Of a stretch of 64,000 nt of DNA, positions 6,173-64,000 are shown in pieces. Under the pieces are notes generated by a model. That model was not told where the DNA came from. It saw nothing but the letters and a program-made list of their open reading frames with translations, and searched no databases. Positions within the stretch are counted from its first letter, which is position 1; every line of letters begins with the position of its first letter. The position numbers were made by a program, and so were the translations under genes. The stretch is from Candidatus Magasanikiibacteriota bacterium (lineage in GTDB: Bacteria; Patescibacteriota; Patescibacteriia; Magasanikbacterales; UBA922): assembly GCA_003510435.1 (NCBI GenBank), contig DOMK01000010.1:41487-105486 (forward strand). The letters are read 5' to 3'.

Positions 6173-6291
6173 ACACTGATTTCACTGATTTTGTGAGCCT
6201 GCCTGTGGGCAGGGATTTCACAGATTATAATAATCAGTGAAATCAATTTATAAATCAGTGCCTGCCTGCGCAGGCAGGTAATCAATGTTAT
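6173..6291. repeat. MITE-like repeat family A (TIR AACATTGATTACACTGATT), two units with GCCTGCC hairpins; ends at the GNAT start codon
   Basis: CACTGATTTCACTGATT .. AATCAGTGAAATCAAT .. AATCAATGTTAT-ATG; copies at 905-941, 13416-13504, 24317-24384, 33034-33085, 39037-39152. Confidence 0.7.
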
Positions 6292-6837
6292 ATGAAAGGA
6301 CCAATTTTAAAAGGACCAAGAGTAACTTTGCGTCCAATGAAAGTTAGTGATGCGCCAAATTATGTGCGTTGGTTTAAGGATAAAGAAGTAATGAAATATT
6401 TTAATAATAACGTGTGGGGAATTAGTTTGGAAAAAGAAAAAAGCGCTATTAGATCTTTGCAAAGAAAAGTAAATAGTTTAAATTGGGCTGTAGAAGTGGA
6501 TGGATATCACATTGGTGGTACAGGAATAGTTTTGGATAAAAAGGCTGGTACAGGACGTTGGGGCATAGTGATTGGCGAAAAAAAAGAGTGGGGGAAAGGT
6601 TATGCTGTTGAAATTATTTATCTGTGTGCAGATTATTTTTTCAAAAAATTAAAAGGTGAAAGATTTGATTTAATGGTTGAAATGAAAAACGAAAAAGCTT
6701 TAAAAGCTTATAAAAAAGCTGGTTTTAAATTGGAAGGTGTAATGAGAAGTGCTGGTTATAATCCAAGGTTGAAAAAGAGAATAGATTCTGGTGTTATGAG
6801 TATTCTCCGTTCAGAATGGTTAAAATATAAAAAATAA
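6292..6837 (+). CDS. GNAT family N-acetyltransferase
   Basis: 181 aa; acetyl-CoA binding-like segment (GIVIGEKKEWGKGYA); RimL-like. Confidence 0.7.
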   Translation: MKGPILKGPRVTLRPMKVSDAPNYVRWFKDKEVMKYFNNNVWGISLEKEKSAIRSLQRKVNSLNWAVEVDGYHIGGTGIVLDKKAGTGRWGIVIGEKKEWGKGYAVEIIYLCADYFFKKLKGERFDLMVEMKNEKALKAYKKAGFKLEGVMRSAGYNPRLKKRIDSGVMSILRSEWLKYKK

Positions 6838-7489: not shown

Positions 7490-9268
7490 ATGGAAAAAGA
7501 ACAATTGGAGGCCATGCGTCATTCATGCGAACATGCCTTAACAATGGCCATGATGCGTTTGTGGCCGGGGAAAATTAAAGCCGCTATGGGTCCAGCCACG
7601 GATGATGGATTTTATTTTGATTTTGATTCAGAAGTAAAAATTTCTGAAGCGGATTTTGATAAAATAGAAAAAGAAATGGCCAAGATTATCAAAGATAATT
7701 TGCCAATGATAAAAGACGAAATGACAGTGGCAGAAGCGAGAGAATTTTTTAGTCGTAATACTTATGAGGGCAATGAATATAAACATGAATGGTTAGATGA
7801 GATAGAAGGTAGAGGAGAAAAAGTCAGTGTATACTGGATGGGAGAAAAGGGTGGAGATATGCCAAATACTTTTGTGGATATTTGTTCTGGTCCTCATGTA
7901 GAATCTACTGGTAAAATTGGCGCTTTCAAATTATTAAAAGTCGCGGGAGCTTATTGGCATGGTGATGAAAAAAATAAAATGTTACAAAGAGTTTATGGCA
8001 CAGCTTTTGCTACCCAAGAAGATTTGGACAAGTATTTAACAATGATGGAAGAAGCCAAAAATCGTGATCATCGTAAATTGGGAGTAGAATTAGATTTGTT
8101 TACTTTTTCAGATTTGGTTGGTCCGGGTTTGGCTTTGTGGACGCCAAAAGGAACATTACTGCGCAATACTTTGGATGAATATGTGTGGCAACTTCGTAAA
8201 GAACGTGGTTATACCAAAGTGACTATTCCTCATATTACCAAAAAAGCTCTTTATGAAAAGAGTGGTCATTGGGATAAGTTTGCGACCGAATTATTTCACA
8301 TCACTACTCGCGAAGGCCATGAGTTTGCCATGAAGCCAATGAATTGTCCACACCATACGCAAATTTATGATCATGTCCGTCGGAGTTATCGTGAATTGCC
8401 CCAACGTTATGCTGAGACTACCATGGTTTATCGTGATGAACAAACTGGAGAACTGTCTGGTTTATCTCGTGTGCGTTGTATTACTCAGGACGATGCCCAT
8501 GTATTTTTGCGTGAATCACAAGTAAAAGAAGAAATTTTTAAGATTTGGGATATTATTGAAATTTTTTATAAAGCGACTGGCTTTGGCAAGATGCGCGTGC
8601 GTTTGTCATTTCATGATCCAGATCATTTTGAAAAATATCTTGGTGAAAAAGAAGTTTGGGAACGAACAGAAAATCAATTGCGCGAACTGGCTCAAGAGCG
8701 CGGAGTAGAAGTGTTTGAAGCCAAGGGAGAAGCCGCTATGTATGGACCAAAAGTAGACTTTATTGCGGTTGATTCTATTGGTCGTGAATGGCAAGTAGCC
8801 ACAGTTCAGCTAGATCGCAATTTGCCAGAACGATTTGATCTAAATTGTATAAATGAAAAAGGTGAACAAGAAAGAATTGTGATGCTCCATGCTGCAATTA
8901 TGGGTTCGATTGAACGTTTTCTATCTATTTTAATAGAACATCACGCCGGAGCTTTTCCAGTTTGGATGGCGCCTGTACAAATACAATTGGTACCAGTCTC
9001 AGCTAAGCATGTTGAGGGGGCAAAAAATTTACTAACAGAATTGGTAGAGCTGGGAATTAGAGTAGATATAGATGAGGCGGACGAAACTGTAGGAAATAAA
9101 GTGCGTAAAGCTGTAGGACAAAAAATTCCTTACATTGTCGTAGTGGGGGATAAAGAATTGGCTGGTGAAGATTGGATGATTCGCGTGCGTGGGCAAGAGA
9201 ACCAAGAAAAAATGAAGAAAGAAGAATTTGTAGAAAAAGTTTTAGATGAAACAAGAGAGAGGAAGTAA
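7490..9268 (+). CDS. thrS: threonyl-tRNA synthetase
   Basis: Class II aaRS motifs, NRDHRKLG, C-terminal anticodon-binding domain; 592 aa. Confidence 0.9.
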   Translation: MEKEQLEAMRHSCEHALTMAMMRLWPGKIKAAMGPATDDGFYFDFDSEVKISEADFDKIEKEMAKIIKDNLPMIKDEMTVAEAREFFSRNTYEGNEYKHEWLDEIEGRGEKVSVYWMGEKGGDMPNTFVDICSGPHVESTGKIGAFKLLKVAGAYWHGDEKNKMLQRVYGTAFATQEDLDKYLTMMEEAKNRDHRKLGVELDLFTFSDLVGPGLALWTPKGTLLRNTLDEYVWQLRKERGYTKVTIPHITKKALYEKSGHWDKFATELFHITTREGHEFAMKPMNCPHHTQIYDHVRRSYRELPQRYAETTMVYRDEQTGELSGLSRVRCITQDDAHVFLRESQVKEEIFKIWDIIEIFYKATGFGKMRVRLSFHDPDHFEKYLGEKEVWERTENQLRELAQERGVEVFEAKGEAAMYGPKVDFIAVDSIGREWQVATVQLDRNLPERFDLNCINEKGEQERIVMLHAAIMGSIERFLSILIEHHAGAFPVWMAPVQIQLVPVSAKHVEGAKNLLTELVELGIRVDIDEADETVGNKVRKAVGQKIPYIVVVGDKELAGEDWMIRVRGQENQEKMKKEEFVEKVLDETRERK

Positions 9269-9404
9269 AAAAAGAGAAAATTAAAAATCCCCAACTTCGC
9301 TAAAGCTTCGCTGGGTAAACTAATCATAATATGTCTCAAAAATTATATTAGTTTGCCCTGCGTAGTCTGAAAGACGTAGCATGGGGATTTTTTTATCAAA
9401 TTAT

Positions 9405-11336
9405 TTAGTCACCCCTATCTGTTTCGCCTTCGGCAACTCGTGCATCATCGGAGTTGAAGAATTCCTTTTCTGCTGGTGTAGTTTCTAACCAGTTTTTTTT
9501 GTCAATATATTTACCAAGTTGTTTGTATACTTGTCCAAGTCGGTGTTCGTAAAATTGTTTTGGAAAACCAGCTTCGGTTATACCTAACATAGTTTTTGCT
9601 TCTCTGCTAGTTTTGTTTAGAACATCAAATATTTGACCATACCATTCCCTAGCATTTTCAATTGAAAGTGTTTGCTTGGCCATTTGCATAGCAATATCAT
9701 TTATATCAATAGCATTGGCTGTATAAACAGCTCGGTCAAGTAAAAGGTCAATTGCGATAGCTTGTTCGTCTGGCGTTAATTCAAGCGGTTGAGATTTAGT
9801 TTCGCCTTTTTTTGTTTTGCCGATTCTTTTGGTGGCGTCATAATTAAGAATTTTGCTTCTAACGCCTTCAATTTTTTGTTGGTCAATAATATGGCCACTG
9901 TCTTTAACTTTTTCTGGTTTTTCTACTTGGGTTGTGTCTTGGTCTCTTTCATCATCTTGTGTTACATCTCTATCAGGTTCATCAGTATTGTCGGATGTAG
10001 CTGTATGGTATAAAGGATTGTCTTTTTCTTCTACAAGGAATCCTTGTGGTAATTCTGCTGGTTTTGTTGGATGTTTTTGTGTTATTTCTGGTGTTGTACC
10101 AAGGTTTTTTCCAAACGTTTGTGGTTTACTGACATTGAAAGCTATTTGTTCTCCCCCATGTGTTGGTATTACATTTTTACCAGTTTGGGAATCAAAATAT
10201 CTTGGTTTGGGAGTTTGTTTTTGTGGAGTAGGTTCAGGGTTTGTTTTTCCTTCCAAAGTTGAAAGACCTAAATTTGTATCTAAATTTTCAAGAGAAACTT
10301 TATCGTGTTCTGGTGTAGCTTCTCCATTATGGTTTTCTGTTGGGTTGCCGTGTTTTTCAACAGTTCCGTCGTCATGAAAAAATAATTCTTCGCCAGAGTG
10401 TACTACAAGATCACTATATCTTCCCCAATATTTATTAATGGCATTTTGTTCAATACCATTTTTGTTATCAGCTGGGAATTTTTTTTGTAAAATACCCCAA
10501 AAAGTATCACCTGGTTGTACAGTGTAAGGTAATAAAGTTTCGTCTTCTGTATCTAAATTTGTATTTGTGTCAGCAATTTGTTTATTTTCAGTGTGTGTTT
10601 GTCTGGCTAGTTCCTTCACTTGTTGAATTGCTTGCTTAAATTCCTGATCACGTTGCTCTACTACTTGTAAATCTGGATTGTCAGCCAAGTCAGGTTGAGA
10701 TTGAACATTTTTTTGTTTTTCTGGTTCTGGAATTTCTGGAGCTTCGTGTTTTTTAAAGGCATTAAAGGCCGCCATAATAGCCAGGCCAGCTGCTACCCAT
10801 CTAGAAACCGACTTAACTTGTTTTTTTATGTCTGGTTTTTCACCTTTAGGTAGTTGAGTTTTTTCATCGATTTCCACGATCTGCTGTCTTAGTATTTCTG
10901 CTTTTCTGGCTTCTTCATCTAGTTTTTCTTTATAAGCCAATAAAGCATTGTCCAAGTCTGCTGGTTTTGGTCTAGCAACTTGTTGTAATTCATCATACTT
11001 TTTTATTTTTTCGTATATATAGTTTGTCAGATGTTTTTGGGGAATTTCGGTAGTATTACCTGTTGGGCTCTGCAGTCTTTTAATTACAGGTTCAAGATTA
11101 GAATCAACAATATAGCCCGATTCTGCTTCTTGTCCAATTTGTCTTTGTAGATCTTCAATAATAAAATTAATAACATTTTGTTTGTCTTTTCGTCTTTCTA
11201 CCAATGGATTATTGTTAATTGCATCGGCCAATGGAGAATACCACCTGGCCCAAAATTCTTGTCCACCCTCAATCTTCCTGAGTCCTCCTCTTCCCTTAGA
11301 TGTGGCAGAGTCAATTTTTGGCGCATTTTCTTTCAT
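9405..11336 (-). CDS. large hypothetical membrane-anchored protein with LysM-like segment
   Basis: 643 aa; one TM helix (AAGLAIMAAFNAF); coiled-coil-like charged region; YTVQPGDTFWGIL LysM-like motif. Confidence 0.5.
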   Translation of the reverse strand: MKENAPKIDSATSKGRGGLRKIEGGQEFWARWYSPLADAINNNPLVERRKDKQNVINFIIEDLQRQIGQEAESGYIVDSNLEPVIKRLQSPTGNTTEIPQKHLTNYIYEKIKKYDELQQVARPKPADLDNALLAYKEKLDEEARKAEILRQQIVEIDEKTQLPKGEKPDIKKQVKSVSRWVAAGLAIMAAFNAFKKHEAPEIPEPEKQKNVQSQPDLADNPDLQVVEQRDQEFKQAIQQVKELARQTHTENKQIADTNTNLDTEDETLLPYTVQPGDTFWGILQKKFPADNKNGIEQNAINKYWGRYSDLVVHSGEELFFHDDGTVEKHGNPTENHNGEATPEHDKVSLENLDTNLGLSTLEGKTNPEPTPQKQTPKPRYFDSQTGKNVIPTHGGEQIAFNVSKPQTFGKNLGTTPEITQKHPTKPAELPQGFLVEEKDNPLYHTATSDNTDEPDRDVTQDDERDQDTTQVEKPEKVKDSGHIIDQQKIEGVRSKILNYDATKRIGKTKKGETKSQPLELTPDEQAIAIDLLLDRAVYTANAIDINDIAMQMAKQTLSIENAREWYGQIFDVLNKTSREAKTMLGITEAGFPKQFYEHRLGQVYKQLGKYIDKKNWLETTPAEKEFFNSDDARVAEGETDRGD

Positions 11337-21869: not shown

Positions 21870-22814
21870 TTAATTTGTAATTCGCGTTCCTGATTTACCT
21901 TCTAGTGCACTAGCAAGTTTATTCGGTGAAGTAATGATGGCTTCTTTCCCACCGTTTTCTAAAAAATTAATTACCGCCTGAATTTTTGGTAACATAGAAC
22001 CTTTGGCAAAATGATTTTGTTCAATGTACTTTTTTAATTCCTGAATATTTATTTTTTCTAATTTTTTCTGATCTGGTTTGCCAAAATTTATATAAACATT
22101 ATCCACGGCGGTGGCAATGACAAGAGTGTCGGCTTTTATTTGATTGGCAAGAAGGGCAGAAGCAAAATCTTTATCAATTACTGCTTCGACACCTTTTAAT
22201 TTTCCTCTTTCCTCTACAACTGGAATACCACCGCCACCGCAAGCAATAACAATGGTATTATTTTTTATTAATTCTTGCACAATATCTTTTTCAATTACAT
22301 CAATTGGTTTGGGAGAAGCCACAACTCGACGCCAGCCTCGACCAGCGTCTTCTTCTACTGCCCAGCCATATTTTTTGTACAAAGTTTTGGCTTGAGCTTT
22401 GGTATAAAAAGAGCCAATCGGTTTGGTTGGGTTGTTAAAAGCAGGATCATTTTTGTCCACCAAAACCTGGGTGACAACAGTCACGGCTTTTTTGTTCAAT
22501 TTTTTCTTGGTAATAATATTATCCAAGCTTTGTTGAAGATAAAAACCAATTGCACCTTGAGTTTCTGCATCAGCCGTGTCCAAAGGCACACGATGTAATT
22601 TTAATTGATTAAAACCCAATTCAGATCTTTGCATAATAAAACCAACCTGTGGTCCGTTGCCATGGGTAATAACAATTTCTAAATTTTTGCTGAATAGTGG
22701 AAGCAAAGCTTCGCAAGTTTTTTTTACTTGGAAATATTGGTCTTTTTCGGTTTGGTGTTCTTTATCTTTGATAAGAGCATTACCACCAACAGCGATGACG
22801 ATTCTTTTTGACAT
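21870..22814 (-). CDS. arcC: carbamate kinase
   Basis: N-terminal IVIAVGGNAL, amino-acid kinase fold, ~314 aa. Confidence 0.8.
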   Translation of the reverse strand: MSKRIVIAVGGNALIKDKEHQTEKDQYFQVKKTCEALLPLFSKNLEIVITHGNGPQVGFIMQRSELGFNQLKLHRVPLDTADAETQGAIGFYLQQSLDNIITKKKLNKKAVTVVTQVLVDKNDPAFNNPTKPIGSFYTKAQAKTLYKKYGWAVEEDAGRGWRRVVASPKPIDVIEKDIVQELIKNNTIVIACGGGGIPVVEERGKLKGVEAVIDKDFASALLANQIKADTLVIATAVDNVYINFGKPDQKKLEKINIQELKKYIEQNHFAKGSMLPKIQAVINFLENGGKEAIITSPNKLASALEGKSGTRITN

Positions 22815-42118: not shown

Positions 42119-44368
<2,250 letters not shown>

Positions 44369-44541
44369 TTAAATCATAAATTAAAAATCATAAATCCTAA
44401 ATAAATTAAGATTTATTGTTTTCTAGTTTAATTATGGCAATATTATAGCACGATTTATTATATTCTTACAAGGGTAAAAGATGTGGATAAAATTTGGCTA
44501 AAATAAGCGAAATAATAAAGATTAATAAAAGTGGAAAATTC

Positions 44542-58741: not shown

Positions 58742-60577
58742 ATGGAAGCAACAGTAAAAAGTAATAACAACCGTAGGCGACGGAGTTATCACACAAAAAG
58801 ATCATCTTCGCCTGTCGGCAGAAACAGCGGACGTGTTTTTGCGGCTCAGCCAGTTAACAAAAATCAGTCTGATAAAACGGAAACTAAGAGTTATCCTTTT
58901 AATCCCAATGGCAATGAAAAATTGCGTATTATTCCCTTGGGTGGACAAGAAGAAGTTGGGCGCAATATGACTGTGTTTGAATATGCGGGCGATATTGTCA
59001 TTCTTGACATGGGGATTCAATTTCCTGAAGAAGACATGCCTGGGATTGATTATATTATTCCCAATACCAAATATTTAATTGGTAAAGAAAAAAATATCAA
59101 AGGCGTAATTTTTAGTCATGGTCACCTTGATCACATTGGTGCCGCGCCAATCTTACTAGAAAAATTGGGCAACCCAGTGATTGCGGGACGAGATCTGACT
59201 TTGGCCATGATCAAACACAAAATGGAAGATTATAAAAAAGGTTCAGCTAGCACTTTGAAAATTGTGCAAATAAAAGGTATTCATGATGTGATCAGAATGG
59301 GCCGATTTACGATTAAGTTTTTTCAAGTGGAACACTCAATCATGGATGCCGTGGGCGTGATTATTGAAACGCCATCGGGAACAGTTGTCCACCCGGGTGA
59401 TTGGGCTTTGGAAAGAGACAAATCTGGTCGACCAACTTTGGATTATTCTCATTTGCAAAATTTGAAAAAGCCGACTGTCCTTATGCTCGAAAGTTTGGGT
59501 TCAATTCATTTTCAACGCAGTGGTAATTATGAAGACATGCACAATAATTTGTTTAATATTTTGCAAGGTGCTGCCGGTCGGGTAATTATTGGCACTTTTT
59601 CTTCACAAATTGAAAGAATAAAGTGGATTTTGGAAGCAGCGGACAAGCTTGGCAAAAAAGTCGCTCTTGACGGCTATAGCATGAAAATGAATATTGATTT
59701 GGCAAAAGAATTGGGTTATATCAAAGTTAAAAAAGGTTTGTTAATTGAATCGAGAAAGATTGATAATTACCCTGATAATGAAATCGTGGTTATTTGTACA
59801 GGAGCGCAAGGAGAAGAGAATGCCGTTCTCACGAGAATTGTTAATCGTGAACATCGGTCAATAAAACTAAAAAAACAAGACACAGTAATTTTTTCTTCCT
59901 CAATTATCCCGGGCAATGAACGATCAATTCAACGTTTAAAAGACAATATGTATCGCCAATGTGATAATGTGATTCATGGTGAACTAATGGATGTACACGT
60001 GTCTGGCCATGCGACGAGAGACGACATTGTTGAAATGATTCGCATGATTCGGCCGACATATTTTATGCCAGTGTATGGCAATCATTATTTCCTCAAAGAA
60101 GCGGAAAAATTAGTGATTCAAAATGGTTTTGATAAAAATAAAATTTTTGTGGCAGACAATGGCAGTGTGATAGAGATTAATATCAAAGAAGGAAAGATAT
60201 TAGAAAAAAAAGTACCAAGTGATTATGTGTTTGTGGATGGTCTGGGGATTTCTGATAGCCAACATATAGTCTTGCGTGATCGCCAAGTTTTGGCCGAGGA
60301 TGGTATGGTGGTCGTGATTGTGACAGTAGATTCTCACACGGGAAAATTAATTCAAAATCCAGATATTATTTCTCGCGGGTTTGTATTTTTGAAAGATAAT
60401 AAGGAATTGATAGAAGATCTACGTCACAAAGTACGTAAGTGGGTGACAGATTCCAATCCATTATCTTGGGTTGATTCTAATGAAATTAGAAATACAGTGC
60501 GAGATAAGGTGGGGCAGTTTTTGTTTACGAAGACGGAGAAGAGACCGATGGTGTTGCCAGTGGTGATTGAAGTGTAG
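58742..60577 (+). CDS. rnj: ribonuclease J with basic N-terminal extension
   Basis: Metallo-beta-lactamase motif FSHGHLDHIGA; beta-CASP and C-terminal domain; 611 aa. Confidence 0.85.
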   Translation: MEATVKSNNNRRRRSYHTKRSSSPVGRNSGRVFAAQPVNKNQSDKTETKSYPFNPNGNEKLRIIPLGGQEEVGRNMTVFEYAGDIVILDMGIQFPEEDMPGIDYIIPNTKYLIGKEKNIKGVIFSHGHLDHIGAAPILLEKLGNPVIAGRDLTLAMIKHKMEDYKKGSASTLKIVQIKGIHDVIRMGRFTIKFFQVEHSIMDAVGVIIETPSGTVVHPGDWALERDKSGRPTLDYSHLQNLKKPTVLMLESLGSIHFQRSGNYEDMHNNLFNILQGAAGRVIIGTFSSQIERIKWILEAADKLGKKVALDGYSMKMNIDLAKELGYIKVKKGLLIESRKIDNYPDNEIVVICTGAQGEENAVLTRIVNREHRSIKLKKQDTVIFSSSIIPGNERSIQRLKDNMYRQCDNVIHGELMDVHVSGHATRDDIVEMIRMIRPTYFMPVYGNHYFLKEAEKLVIQNGFDKNKIFVADNGSVIEINIKEGKILEKKVPSDYVFVDGLGISDSQHIVLRDRQVLAEDGMVVVIVTVDSHTGKLIQNPDIISRGFVFLKDNKELIEDLRHKVRKWVTDSNPLSWVDSNEIRNTVRDKVGQFLFTKTEKRPMVLPVVIEV

Positions 60578-60677
60578 TTAGGTTTTAGGTGATAGATTTT
60601 AGGTTAAAAAAAAGAAGAGACACTCTTGTTATAGGTGCCTCTTTTGTTTTATACAAGCAGTATCAAACCAATAAAGG

Positions 60678-61682
60678 TTATGGCAAGTTCATTGGGATTG
60701 TGTCCCCATATTTAGGAGAAGCTTTGTTTAATAATTTTTGAAAATCATTCCAAGAACTGCATGCTTTCATTAGAAAAATTATATTATCAAGATGTTTTTT
60801 TAATTCTGGACTACCAAATTTAGGTGTTAGATACTGGTGATGTTTTCTTGCCCTTCGGCCTGATGGTAACACAATATTTATTTCTTTAAGTTTTTTAAGT
60901 ACGCCAGGTGCTAGACGTCTATATACTATATCATTTGTCCAATGCCCTATGTAACTAGGTTTATTCTTTGTGGCAAGTGGATAAGTCATTCCTTTTAATC
61001 TAAATAAATGTTTATAGAAATCGTCAGGAAAAGTTTTTGTCCATTTAGCCCACTCATCAGTGATATACTTTTCTAAGATTGCTTGTAAAGCTTCACGATC
61101 GCGTATATCTTGATAGCCTGTTGCTTCGTCTACCAATGCAATAATACCTACTCGAGCAAAACCGCGAACCAAAATTTCTGCTTTTTTTGCAATTTCTAAA
61201 TCTTTTTCATTATTTAAAACTTTAGCTTCGCGTGCCTTTAACCAAACGTCACAGATTTCTGGCAACAGTGTTGCTGGTACTCCATATGCTGTACGTCCAC
61301 CGTGAAGCGGTTTAAATTCAATTGGAGAAAAACCTTCTGTAGACATTTTTGATGGAATATAAGGTTTTAATGTTTTTTTAGATAAAAAAGGTGGTAAATT
61401 AGAGGTACTGTCGGAATTCCATTTTTGACTCTTTCCAAGAGCTTTGCTAACCCCACGATATGATAACACACGAGTTCCGTCTTCAAGTACTGAAGCTTCA
61501 ATAGTTAATTCACCAATATTTATTGAACCATCATGTGTGGCACGAAGAATTTTTTTCCATCGCACATTAGCTGCATCTTGTGCAATTTGTTTTCTTTTTT
61601 GTGGAGTTAATATTTGTGCTCTAGCATAACCACCCTGTGCTTTGTTTTCGTCGTATTCTTGTTTTTTTTCCTTTGTACTCAT
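60678..61682 (-). CDS. P63C domain protein (phage-derived)
   Basis: GFARVGIIALVDEATGYQDIRDREALQAILEKY ... FPDDFY core typical of P63C. Confidence 0.6.
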   Translation of the reverse strand: MSTKEKKQEYDENKAQGGYARAQILTPQKRKQIAQDAANVRWKKILRATHDGSINIGELTIEASVLEDGTRVLSYRGVSKALGKSQKWNSDSTSNLPPFLSKKTLKPYIPSKMSTEGFSPIEFKPLHGGRTAYGVPATLLPEICDVWLKAREAKVLNNEKDLEIAKKAEILVRGFARVGIIALVDEATGYQDIRDREALQAILEKYITDEWAKWTKTFPDDFYKHLFRLKGMTYPLATKNKPSYIGHWTNDIVYRRLAPGVLKKLKEINIVLPSGRRARKHHQYLTPKFGSPELKKHLDNIIFLMKACSSWNDFQKLLNKASPKYGDTIPMNLP

Positions 61683-61702
61683 ATTATTATAATTTAAACA
61701 TT

Positions 61703-61728
61703 ATGCTTGCATAATATCATGCAAGCAT
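61703..61728. promoter_or_regulatory. palindromic operator candidate overlapping P63C promoter
   Basis: Perfect ATGCTTGCAT-aatatc-ATGCAAGCAT inverted repeat inside the spacer of a minus-sense TTGACA-N16/17 promoter. Confidence 0.45.
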
Positions 61729-61783
61729 GTTATTTGTCAAGTTTTTTTGGCTATATTTTTTTAAACTTATCCACACCCACTAT

Positions 61784-61824
61784 TTGACACTTTATCCAAC
61801 ATAGTGTACTATTGTACTAGTACA
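61784..61824 (+). promoter_or_regulatory. promoter plus TrpR-type operator (GTACTAGTAC) of the TrpR-like gene
   Basis: TTGACA-N17-TACTAT, then TGTACTAttgTACTAGTACA; GTACTAGTAC is a perfect palindrome that matches the E. coli trp operator half-site. Confidence 0.5.
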
Positions 61825-61826
61825 AT

Positions 61827-62111
61827 ATGAATAAATTAGACACTTACAAAAAAGAACTAGTCAAAGTTCTAGCTAGTATAAAGGACGAGGCGACCATGAA
61901 TGATTTTTTGGTTGATTTATTGACTGGGGCGGAGATAGAGGAATTACCAAAACGGTTGCAAATTATAAAACAACTAGACAAAGGTGTGTCACAAAGAGAA
62001 GTGGCGAAGAATCTGGGAGTAGGGATTGCGACCGTCACTCGTGGCGCCAAAGAATTAAAAAATAAAAAAGGGGGATTCAGAAAGGTTCTAGATATAATGT
62101 TTGGAAGATAA
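61827..62111 (+). CDS. TrpR/YerC/YecD-family DNA-binding protein
   Basis: LLTGAEIEELPKRLQIIKQLDKGVSQREVAKNLGVGIATVTRG matches the Trp-repressor-like HTH family. Confidence 0.6.
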   Translation: MNKLDTYKKELVKVLASIKDEATMNDFLVDLLTGAEIEELPKRLQIIKQLDKGVSQREVAKNLGVGIATVTRGAKELKNKKGGFRKVLDIMFGR

Positions 62112-62469
62112 CGTTTTTATCATTATAAAAGATAAAAATAATATAAATTGTTTAAAAATTACAAATTAAAAAATCCAAATTACAAATAAATTACAAAAAA
62201 CAAAACAAAAAAATAAAATTGTAATTTGGAATTTGAGTTTTGTTTGTCATTTGGTATTTAGATTTTGGAATTTTAATTCTATGTTATTAAATAAAACAAT
62301 TTTAAAAAATCGTTGGTGGCACTACTCCTGGCGTTGAGTAGTAGTTTTGTTTACCCTGAGTGAACCGAAGGGTTTACCCATTACATACTGCTCGACCTGG
62401 GCAGTTTTTTTTACTCCCCGCCTGTGCAGACAGGTTTACTCCTTACTCCTTATTCTTTATTCCTTATTT

Positions 62470-63855
62470 ATGATTTTACCAAAAATAAATATTCCCCAAA
62501 AACCAATATATATAAATGTAGCGACTGACATTGATTTTTTGGAATTATTTAGAAAAATTGAAAAAGAGTATGACAATTGTTTTATGTTTGAATCGCTTGG
62601 GGAGAAGAGTCGATCTTCACGTTATTCTGTAATTGGTTTTGCACCTGAGCATATTATACGAGCAAAAAATAATGATTTGTACTTTGATGAACAAAAATTT
62701 ACAGTGAAAAATCCTTATGAATCTTTGCGTGAAATAGTACCCCAAGACATTATTAGCCGGCGTTATGCTGGTGGGCTGGTTGGTTATCTTAGTTATGAAG
62801 CAGTAAATTATTTTGAACCAAATCTTAATGTAAAAATTCATGACAAGTTTGACCAGTTTATGTTTGGAGTTTATACCGATGGTTTGGTTTTTGATAACGT
62901 GACAAATCAATTGTTTTATTTTTATTATTTTACCAATCGTTTGCCCGAGATAGAAATACTGATGAATAAAGAGATAAAAGATAAAGAACTTTTTGTTCAA
63001 TTTAGATCAGATTCTTTGTCAGAAACAGAACATTGCGCCCAGGTGGAAATAGTAAAAGAATATATTCGCGGGGGTTATACTTTTCAATGTGAAGTAGGTT
63101 TTAAAAGTGAATATGAGATAAGCGGAGATGCTTTTAAGATTTATGATAAACTTAGAAAAGTAAATCCGTCGCCTTATATGTATTATGTGAAATTTGGCGA
63201 CCCCGTAAAAAAGGACGGGGCAGGCATAAAATTGATTGGTGCTAGTCCAGAATTATTATTTAGTTTGACTCAGGGTGAAGTTGAGACACACCCTTTGGCT
63301 GGTACTATTAAACGGGGAAAAACTGATTTGGAAGACAGACAATTGGCTAGAAAATTATTAAATGATCCAAAAGAAATGGCTGAACACAATATGCTAGTGG
63401 ATATGCATCGTAATGATATTGGTAAAGTATCACAATTTGGCACAGTCAAAATTCGGTCTCTGATGGATATAAAAAAATTTAGCCATGTTCAGCATATTGG
63501 TAGTGAGATTAGTGGCATTATTGATTCACAACAAGATATGTTTTCTGGATTGGCCAGTTTGTTACCAGGCGGAGTATTGTGTGGTGCGCCAAAAATAGAA
63601 ACTATAAAAATTATTGATAGTATGGAAAAGCAGGCGCGCGGGCCATATGGTGGTGGGGTTGGTTTGTTTGGGTTTAATGGTGATGCGACTTTTGCTATCC
63701 CGATTCGCACTTTATTTATTGCGGACAAGTATGCCTATACCCAGACTTGTAGTGGGATAGTGTATGATTCTATTCCTTATAGAGAATATGATGAAATCCA
63801 GCGTAAACTGGCAGCGATGAAACAGACCTTAGGACAGTTTTGTTATTACATGTAA
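62470..63855 (+). CDS. anthranilate/aminodeoxychorismate synthase component I (TrpE/PabB family)
   Basis: Chorismate-binding motifs: LAGTIKRGKT, GAPK, GPYGG; track start 62347 runs through repeats, so the internal ATG at 62470 is preferred. Confidence 0.75.
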   Translation: MILPKINIPQKPIYINVATDIDFLELFRKIEKEYDNCFMFESLGEKSRSSRYSVIGFAPEHIIRAKNNDLYFDEQKFTVKNPYESLREIVPQDIISRRYAGGLVGYLSYEAVNYFEPNLNVKIHDKFDQFMFGVYTDGLVFDNVTNQLFYFYYFTNRLPEIEILMNKEIKDKELFVQFRSDSLSETEHCAQVEIVKEYIRGGYTFQCEVGFKSEYEISGDAFKIYDKLRKVNPSPYMYYVKFGDPVKKDGAGIKLIGASPELLFSLTQGEVETHPLAGTIKRGKTDLEDRQLARKLLNDPKEMAEHNMLVDMHRNDIGKVSQFGTVKIRSLMDIKKFSHVQHIGSEISGIIDSQQDMFSGLASLLPGGVLCGAPKIETIKIIDSMEKQARGPYGGGVGLFGFNGDATFAIPIRTLFIADKYAYTQTCSGIVYDSIPYREYDEIQRKLAAMKQTLGQFCYYM

Positions 63856-63859
63856 ATAT

Positions 63860-64000
63860 ATGAAAATATTAATAATAGACAATTTTGATTCTTTTACTTA
63901 CAACCTTTATCAATATGTGGGTGAATTGTTGCAGGCTAGAAAGATTAATTTTCAATTGGATGTAAAAAGAAATAATGAAATAAGTTTGGTTGAAATAAAA
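63860..64000 (+). CDS. glutamine amidotransferase component II (TrpG/PabA), N-terminal part; runs off window
   Basis: MKILIIDNFDSFTYNLYQYVGEL class-I GATase N-terminus, 4 nt after the component-I stop. Confidence 0.6.
   Translation, partial: MKILIIDNFDSFTYNLYQYVGELLQARKINFQLDVKRNNEISLVEIK

Follow-up and report, generated by a model that had tools for sequence, protein, structure and literature searches.

Members of the Candidate Phyla Radiation (CPR, or Patescibacteria) are usually described as minimal in biosynthesis, and little is known about their gene regulation. The tryptophan repressor TrpR has been described as a regulator of Gammaproteobacteria (PMC5343134) and is known in addition from Chlamydia, a range that does not include the CPR. 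Here we analyzed a 64,000-nt stretch from Candidatus Magasanikbacteria (contig DOMK01000010.1 of GenBank assembly GCA_003510435.1, positions 41,487 to 105,486 of the forward strand; called the window from here on), near the end of which a gene for a 94-aa TrpR homologue is followed by a short leader open reading frame (ORF) and trpE. Judged from its sequence, the best description of the locus is that of a CPR tryptophan control system with two tiers, resembling the one of Escherichia coli. No literature on TrpR or leader-peptide attenuation in CPR was found in the collection searched, which was limited and gives no proof of novelty.

The locus shares with the E. coli trp system the repressor family, the DNA-contact residues, a predicted autoregulated trpR and the layout of the operator (GTACT/CTAG elements with 8-bp phasing, lying over the -10 hexamer). 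It also shares a short leader ORF with tandem tryptophan codons a few codons before the stop, and alternative 1:2, 2:3 and 3:4 hairpins with an intrinsic terminator before trpE. On the other hand, trpR is here the first gene of the operon, so that one operator would serve both autoregulation and control of the operon. The repressors also differ in length (108 aa in E. coli versus 94 aa here) and are similar at only ~34 bits. The leader RNA is not recognized by the Rfam model RF00513, a third tryptophan codon lies next to the leader stop, the 1:2 hairpin is weak and the genome is almost devoid of Shine-Dalgarno sequences.

In trpRBA of Chlamydia trachomatis, as here, trpR is promoter-proximal and is followed by an intergenic region and then by tryptophan genes (PMC7755916, PMC6504234). 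The nearest relatives of our locus (L004, L016 and L088 among the loci described below) have only a tryptophan-synthase-beta-type gene, a salvage-like layout that is also found in Chlamydia. The annotated chlamydial TrpL is atypical and unvalidated, with 59 aa and no tandem tryptophan, and attenuation has been attributed to YtgR (PMC7755916), whereas the leader described here is short, carries tandem tryptophan codons (WW) and has a clear terminator/antiterminator pair. The cargo also differs, being a full trpEGDC(F-B)A, or trpB2 in relatives, rather than trpBA.

RegPrecise-type reconstructions of the gammaproteobacterial regulon have trpR and trpE as a conserved core (PMC5343134), as does the window. 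Many loci of the Oceanospirillales/Cellvibrionales type carry trpR directly upstream of trpE-trpG, often with the operator core palindrome GTACTAGTAC abutting the trpR ATG, and their TrpR (46-57%) and TrpE (54-57%) are closer to the window proteins than E. coli TrpR is. These loci differ from ours in that trpE follows trpR after only 11-40 nt and a leader peptide is lacking. Finally, the HisR/YerC branch has the same small helix-turn-helix fold (PF01371) and 20-bp palindromic operators, and its members are frequently autoregulated and often encoded by the first gene of the operon that they regulate (PMC9413887). The branch is set apart by its operator consensus, by Tyr, Thr and Ser at TrpR positions 69, 79 and 83, by its histidine ligand and by a his-gene context.

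The operon and its pathway

The ORF listing of positions 60000-64000 comprises five genes: one for RNase J, three for proteins of 334, 94 and 461 aa, and one starting at 63860 that runs past the end of the window (Table 1). A 14-kb public groundwater-metagenome contig (L001), which encodes the exact TrpR protein, overlaps the window and extends beyond its end. After trpE it carries trpG, trpD, trpC, trpF-trpB, trpA, aroA, aroK, aroQ and aroE. The locus is very probably the head of a tryptophan biosynthesis operon, trpR-trpL-trpE-trpG-trpD-trpC-trpF/B-trpA, under two-level control in Candidatus Magasanikbacteria. On L001, trpF and trpB are fused into a single 618-aa protein (7840-9696) that scores 653.7 bits with a bifunctional PRAI/TrpB model and 601.9 bits with the trpB model.

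The original prediction had recognized a chorismate-utilizing component I/II pair downstream of trpR, and component I was confirmed at 62470-63855 and the start of component II at 63860. Component I carries the Pfam domains Chorismate_bind (265.9 bits) and Anth_synt_I_N (77.9 bits). Among NCBIfam models, TrpE-arch (405 bits) and trpE_most (378 bits) rank above PabB (252 bits) and isochorismate synthase (157 bits), and the best relative with a solved structure is Sulfolobus TrpE (1qdl). The same prediction suggested that the pair may supply para-aminobenzoate (pABA) to a folA/thyA module. In that case the two proteins would be PabB and PabA, making pABA for folate metabolism under a TrpR-like regulator. 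The TrpE equivalog cut-offs are clearly missed (405 versus 512, with 518 for the other model), which speaks against our own assignment. Some features fit a role in pABA synthesis: component II (TrpG/PabA) is not assignable by sequence, and 7pi1, a structure of a Bacillus subtilis-type aminodeoxychorismate synthase, follows close behind the TrpE structures (232 versus 251 bits). The lysine nucleophile of PabB sits in a PIKGT motif; the translated component I has PLAGT, without this lysine, and the same motif occurs in lysine-less PabB enzymes, which again counts for pABA. Since lysine-less PabB scores close behind TrpE, the component I sequence alone is not decisive, and the choice of tryptophan over pABA is therefore decided by the operon context and the Trp-codon leader. 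Directly behind the pair lie trpD, trpC, trpF-trpB and trpA, so that trpD-F, for which a search elsewhere had been suggested, are on the same contig. In addition, pabC is missing from the 12 genes of L001, the TrpE hidden Markov models outscore those of PabB by more than 125 bits, and a Trp-codon leader and a Trp-repressor operator stand ahead of the pair. We therefore regard synthesis of pABA by this pair as very improbable. Nor is such a pair unusual for a CPR-like genome, as had been supposed, trpR-linked trp operons being present in several CPR lineages.

Repressor, promoter and operator

The 94-aa protein matches Pfam Trp_repressor over residues 9-89 (75.4 bits, E 3.8e-21, cut-off 27), and TrpR is its best NCBIfam model. 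The tryptophan pocket of E. coli TrpR is formed by T44, R54, R84, G85 and S88, of which the first four are kept as T33, R43, R72 and G73. Aligned to the structures 1jhg and 1tro, the E. coli DNA contacts R69, I79, A80, T81, T83 and R84 correspond to R57, I67, A68, T69, T71 and R72. These six residues are invariant or nearly so across 25 homologues, and Q68 and K90 of E. coli TrpR are kept in the window protein as well. The list of contacts and the criteria for telling TrpR from HisR were taken from a published analysis in which HisR/YerC proteins differ from TrpR at three of the six positions (PMC9413887).

These comparisons support a protein of the TrpR type rather than the YerC/HisR type, so that of the label "TrpR/YerC-like" originally given to it only the first half stands. 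Two features weigh against this assignment, namely a NCBIfam TrpR equivalog cut-off that is narrowly missed (65.2 versus 67.25 bits) and the replacement of pocket residue S88 by Glu (E76). Both would suit a TrpR-family protein that is YerC/HisR-like, or otherwise not a tryptophan regulator, and senses a different ligand, as would the common fold and the 20-bp palindromic operator design of HisR (PMC9413887). Such a regulator is highly unlikely here: the YerC/YecD model reaches 31.7 bits, under its cut-off of 42.2, and the residues equivalent to R69, I79 and T83 are of the TrpR type. Moreover, the operator fits the TrpR motif and not the HisR motif cacTTTA-N6-TAAAgtg, and 50 loci show linkage of the gene to trp genes.

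Ahead of the TrpR-type gene, the promoter TTGACA-N17-TACTAT was confirmed as first proposed. Transcription is predicted to start near 61819, which would leave a 5' untranslated region (UTR) of ~8 nt without a Shine-Dalgarno sequence. The palindrome originally placed at 61806-61824 is indeed present, but its 20-mer, TGTACTATTGTACTAGTACA, begins one base earlier, at 61805. The core GTACTAGTAC of this 20-mer, at 61814-61823, occurs nowhere else in the window as an exact copy. CTAT/CTAG elements lie 8 bp apart, and a weaker phased half-site reaches into the trpR start codon. The published TrpR motif TGTAcTnGTnnACnAgTACA consists of GNACT half-sites with 8-bp phasing (PMC9413887), and TGTACTATTGTACTAGTACA agrees with it at 15/16 specified positions.

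A scan of a genome collection, using an alignment of the 25 homologues, returned 80 loci, in each of which trpR was located and its upstream DNA read. An exact GTACTAGTAC lies at most 70 nt upstream of the trpR start in 35 of 81 loci, and when one mismatch is allowed the number rises to 54; most of the other loci have ATACTAGTAT-type variants. Elsewhere in the 855 kb of these loci only one exact copy and ten one-mismatch copies occur. The palindrome is thus conserved in most orthologous regions, where its absence would have told against the original prediction. A symmetrized weight matrix built from the related loci has the consensus GTACTAATGTACTAGTACAATAGTAC, with GTAC/CTAG elements phased by 8 bp, and gives 27.1 bits at the window operator versus 3.8 bits for the next best site in the window and the extended contig. 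In the same DNA the matrix revealed no second TrpR operator, either before the leader, before the aro genes or elsewhere. The 3.8-bit site, at 21899-21924, is the only other CTAG-N4-CTAG; it falls inside an amino-acid-kinase gene upstream of an amidohydrolase and probably arose by chance.

Lying over both the -10 hexamer and the predicted start, the operator has the geometry expected for repression of the repressor's own promoter. The data support a canonical and autoregulatory TrpR operator, with binding predicted. In the proposed mechanism, a tryptophan-bound TrpR dimer would bind 61805-61824 (or up to 61831) and block the promoter for trpR and, by read-through, for the downstream genes; a single site would then bring about both autoregulation and repression of the operon.

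Two further observations concern trpR promoters. Firstly, TTATCCACA, identical to the DnaA-box consensus, lies at 61767..61775 (+), 8 nt upstream of the trpR -35. It is found 7-9 nt upstream of a -35 TTGAC in ten CPR trpR promoters (the other nine being L004, L005, L007, L008, L009, L016, L087, L088 and L089), and the intervening bases vary. Out of 19 exact copies in ~0.85 Mb, all ten with an adjoining TTGAC are trpR promoters. A further exact copy in the window (44482-44490, -) lies 117 nt upstream of gyrB (42119-44365, -). A replication origin was considered and rejected as an explanation, as the window contains no DnaA-box cluster and one-mismatch counts are at chance level. Secondly, in 22 gammaproteobacterial loci GTACTAGTAC directly adjoins the trpR ATG (GTACTAGTACATG) after a -35/-10 pair; they include L036, L040, L041, L047-L050, L055, L056 and L063. 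With the operator abutting the ATG behind the -35/-10 pair, the trpR mRNAs would therefore be leaderless or nearly so and the operator would span the start codon.

Leader and predicted attenuator

The original prediction did not comment on the 358 nt between trpR and trpE. We found there an 18-codon leader ORF, trpL, with alternative hairpins (Table 1), and from sequence and folding models this region is predicted to be a classical ribosome-mediated trp attenuator that had been overlooked. Masked folds, in which only the RNA left free by a ribosome at a given codon is folded (a thermodynamic model only), gave the antiterminator and 0/5 terminator pairs with the ribosome at WW, and 5/5 terminator pairs with the ribosome at the stop. 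Of 11 loci folded in this way, 9 show the same change from antiterminator to terminator. Under a shortage of charged tRNA-Trp, a ribosome on the leader would stall at the tandem codons (62314-19) and cover segment 1; segments 2 and 3 would then pair as antiterminator and RNA polymerase would read into trpE. When tryptophan is plentiful, the ribosome would reach the leader stop and cover segment 2, so that the 3:4 terminator would form and transcription would end at the U tract near 62412. Together with the repressor mechanism, we infer tryptophan as the co-repressor, the transcription start, co-transcription of trpR and trpE, and stalling and termination in the leader.

Comparison with related loci supports the attenuator. 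Among 9,388 small ATG ORFs in 866 kb, only 23 combine WW with a downstream terminator-like hairpin, and 17 of these directly follow trpR, mostly in Patescibacteria, the other six lying elsewhere. This corresponds to a ~100-fold enrichment right after trpR. Homologous or analogous WW leaders were found in at least 21 related loci. The nearest relative, L004 (TrpR 91% identical), has a leader ending in SWWHYSWR, the same helices and the terminator; the nearest relatives in general keep the WWHYSWR end and all three helices, with some compensatory changes. Further leaders are present in L088, L087, L089, L016, L007, L009, L024, L034, L039 and L110. The leader peptides diverge, but their tryptophan codons are kept. 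The third of these in the window, beside the leader stop, is conserved as well. The leader ORF of several loci begins at most 15 nt from the trpR stop or overlaps it, which argues for co-transcription of trpR and leader. A metagenome scan for the leader core CTCCTGGCGNTGAGNAGTA returned 39 stretches, of which one is a real leader (L110); the remaining matches were rejected as chance occurrences in unrelated, mostly GC-rich DNA.

Several results weigh against the attenuator. The 1:2 hairpin is weak relative to 2:3, such that the equilibrium fold without a ribosome is the antiterminator, and the simple masking model favors termination when the ribosome stalls at the third tryptophan codon. Support from covariation is no more than suggestive, as only five leaders could be aligned: pairing is kept at 94% in the 1:2 helix and at 91% in the 2:3 helix, versus 16-66% in shifted registers, and each helix shows two double changes. 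In a permissive scan of 61680-62520 the Rfam family Trp_leader (RF00513) reached only 18.2 bits (gathering score 41, E 0.78), and at the gathering threshold the whole window and four related loci yielded only tRNAs. With so weak a match, the leader would work like the Trp_leader family without being a sequence member of it. Two other kinds of leader were tried and rejected. No T-box match was found in 61680-62520 even at E up to 10. TRAP-type leaders have 9-11 spaced (G/U)AG triplets plus mtrB, and only three contiguous GAG/UAG triplets are present here.

The sub-threshold Rfam match could also mean that there is no attenuation at all, 62387-62412 being the terminator of the trpR transcript, the ORF fortuitous and trpE equipped with its own promoter. 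The z-score of the whole-leader fold, only -1.9, would agree with this, and the spacer between trpR and the leader could conceal a promoter. We nevertheless find this explanation quite unlikely, because the U tract ends only 57 nt before the trpE ATG without a promoter-like site in between, WW ORFs with terminators are strongly enriched after trpR, their tryptophan codons are conserved in divergent peptides, and 9 of 11 loci have an antiterminator that overlaps both the end of the ORF and the terminator.

A further alternative accepts the attenuator and splits the control: TrpR would repress trpR only, and the trp genes would be transcribed mainly from a promoter in the spacer (62112-62280) and controlled by attenuation alone. 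An internal TrpR-independent promoter is conceivable because 170 nt of AT-rich DNA part trpR from the leader, which is a point against a single two-level operon. This spacer is not conserved in relatives, it holds a weak promoter-like match at 62190-62219, and for the trp operon of Shewanella control by attenuation alone, without TrpR, has been reported (PMC5343134). On the opposite side, trpR and the leader are not separated by a terminator, many relatives leave no space for a promoter because their leader ORF abuts or overlaps the trpR stop, and promoter-like matches in the region are no commoner than in shuffled sequence. Alignment of 62112-62280 with relatives showed no convincing conserved promoter. 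Split control thus appears unlikely, although it deserves to be taken seriously, and we favor a single operon repressed by TrpR and attenuated in its leader.

Table 1. Features at the trpR-trpE locus (window positions; energies in kcal/mol)
Feature	Position	Strand	Description
RNase J	58742-60577	+	Pfam RNase J domains
P63C-domain gene	60678-61682	-	334 aa; Pfam P63C 99.3 bits; phrog_2384 full length, E 1e-112
Perfect 10-bp inverted repeat	61703-61728		ATGCTTGCAT-N6-ATGCAAGCAT; lies across the -10 hexamer and start of the P63C promoter-like site
P63C promoter-like site	61740-61711	-	TTGACA 61740-61735, N18, TATTAT 61716-61711
trpR/operon promoter	61784-61812	+	TTGACA 61784-89, N17, TACTAT 61807-12; hexamers; TTGACA similarly placed in most related loci
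TrpR operator (predicted)	61805-61824		TGTACTATTGTACTAGTACA, 20 bp; 61805-61831 with weaker half-site; matches published motif; conserved
trpR	61827-62111	+	94-aa Trp repressor homologue without Trp residues; Pfam, NCBIfam, structure alignment
Spacer	62112-62280	+	AT-rich, low complexity, imperfect 50-nt inverted repeat; no terminator-like site
trpL leader ORF	62281-62337	+	MLLNKTILKNRWWHYSWR and stop; 18 codons, 3 Trp; Trp codons 62314-19 (tandem) and 62329-31
Segment 1:2 hairpin	62321-62342	+	7 bp, -7.1; spans leader ORF end and stop codon
Antiterminator 2:3	62333-62396	+	62333-45 pairs with 62383-96, -22.9; excludes terminator
Intrinsic terminator 3:4	62387-62412	+	stem 62387-62405 and U7 tract, -8.8
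Small hairpin and pyrimidine tract	62420-62469	+	hairpin 62420-35, then 34-nt tract directly before trpE ATG; both conserved before trpB2 in relatives
trpE	62470-63855	+	anthranilate synthase component I, 461 aa; Pfam, NCBIfam, operon context
trpG	63860-64000	+	glutamine amidotransferase component II, 5' part only; runs past window end

Related loci, neighboring DNA and biological meaning

Among the related loci, 50 fetched ones carry trpR directly upstream of trp genes, and the leader is common in CPR lineages. In L004, L016, L088 and L110 a homologous operator, leader and 5' UTR, including the pyrimidine tract, precede a lone trpB2 (an assignment that rests on NF009057, 698 bits) and not trpE. 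As homologous operators and leaders stand ahead of either trpE or trpB2, the same cassette would serve full synthesis or a salvage-type enzyme. In L004 (6668-8436) trpB2 is followed by a 118-aa ParB/Srx-fold protein, whose best NCBIfam match is to the N-terminal part of the ADP-dependent serine kinase SerK (E 9e-15), and the pair recurs at the equivalent positions in L016 (59%) and L007 (49%). TrpB2 enzymes have been reported to use O-phosphoserine, and the two genes may form an indole-salvage module.

A second leader ORF, MNINKKVFYFYFWKTS, with a Phe/Tyr/Trp run before its stop codon, lies between trpA and aroA (L001 10530-10650), ~5 kb past the window end. It is followed by a terminator, AAGAACCTCGGTCACGAGGTTCTTTTATTT, and has a fold z-score of -3.9. 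A homologous terminator follows MKNMNKAFYFFYFVNL and its stop codon in L004 (8499-8620). The MNINKKVFYFYFWKTS leader is probably an attenuator of aroA-aroK-aroQ-aroE that responds to aromatic amino acids. Small WW ORFs with terminators were also observed ~1.4 kb upstream of trpR on contigs of Woesebacteria and Cerribacteria (MQVQSIIYHCSWWQLS at L015 3496-3546 and MKYMYTTHPSFWWQLC at L038 4605-4655, respectively), and these are possibly leaders of other trp genes.

The spacer between trpR and leader consists of different low-complexity or repeat DNA in each strain. In L088 (451-560) it is a (TTGGTAA)n microsatellite, and L004 has GC-rich CTCCCCC...GGGGGAG palindromes at 6286-6400 and 7990-8080 that recur elsewhere in its contig. 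With regard to translation, GGAG/GAGG/AGGA motifs were found upstream of only 3 of 45 long ORFs in the window, which suggests that the genome hardly uses Shine-Dalgarno sequences. The 34-nt pyrimidine tract before trpE (UUACUCCUUACUCCUUAUUC..., 62436-62469) resembles the anti-Shine-Dalgarno end of 16S rRNA and is conserved before trpB2 in L004 and L088.

On the other side of the trpR promoter, the gene with a P63C domain and the perfect palindrome in its promoter region were both confirmed. Homologues 53-57% identical to its product occur on IMG/VR viral contigs. At the same spot L004 has a 326-aa gene unrelated to it, and in L016 trpR follows RNase J with nothing in between, so that the P63C gene appears to be a strain-specific insertion of a phage-family gene without functional tie to trpR. 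The window holds ~8 distinct inverted repeats that are perfect over 10 bp or more; this palindrome is one of them, and most of the others resemble terminators. Since it overlaps the promoter-like site of the gene, its likeliest role is that of a putative operator; no comparable palindrome was found upstream of three P63C homologues on viral contigs.

Taken together, we lean toward the view that many Patescibacteria share a portable cassette. It would consist of a TrpR-controlled, near-leaderless promoter, trpR and a WW leader-attenuator often translationally coupled to trpR, and its cargo would be either trpE-A or indole salvage (trpB2, sometimes with the ParB/SerK-like gene), with the MNINKKVFYFYFWKTS leader attenuating aroAKQE. 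If this is true, it would be the first description of ribosome-mediated attenuation and of TrpR control in CPR, and a third input would come from TTATCCACA, the conserved DnaA-box-like sequence at -45. The known mechanisms themselves are unchanged: they are TrpR repression and TrpL attenuation, here predicted in CPR, with trpR first as in Chlamydia trpRBA.

For the biology of these organisms, the locus would represent a complete tryptophan operon with shikimate genes in a CPR bacterium, under both classic layers of control, and a likely mis-annotation as pABA synthesis is corrected. Ribosome-mediated attenuation requires tight coupling of transcription and translation as well as intrinsic termination, and an attenuator in a genome nearly without Shine-Dalgarno sequences would bear on translation initiation and on ribosome-RNA polymerase coupling in CPR. 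CPR and Gammaproteobacteria have almost identical operators, and the same leader stands before trpE in one strain and before trpB2 in its nearest relative. The likeness of the operators and the shared leader would therefore provide a simple metagenome marker that, if the cassette reading holds, distinguishes tryptophan producers from indole scavengers among host-dependent CPR bacteria.

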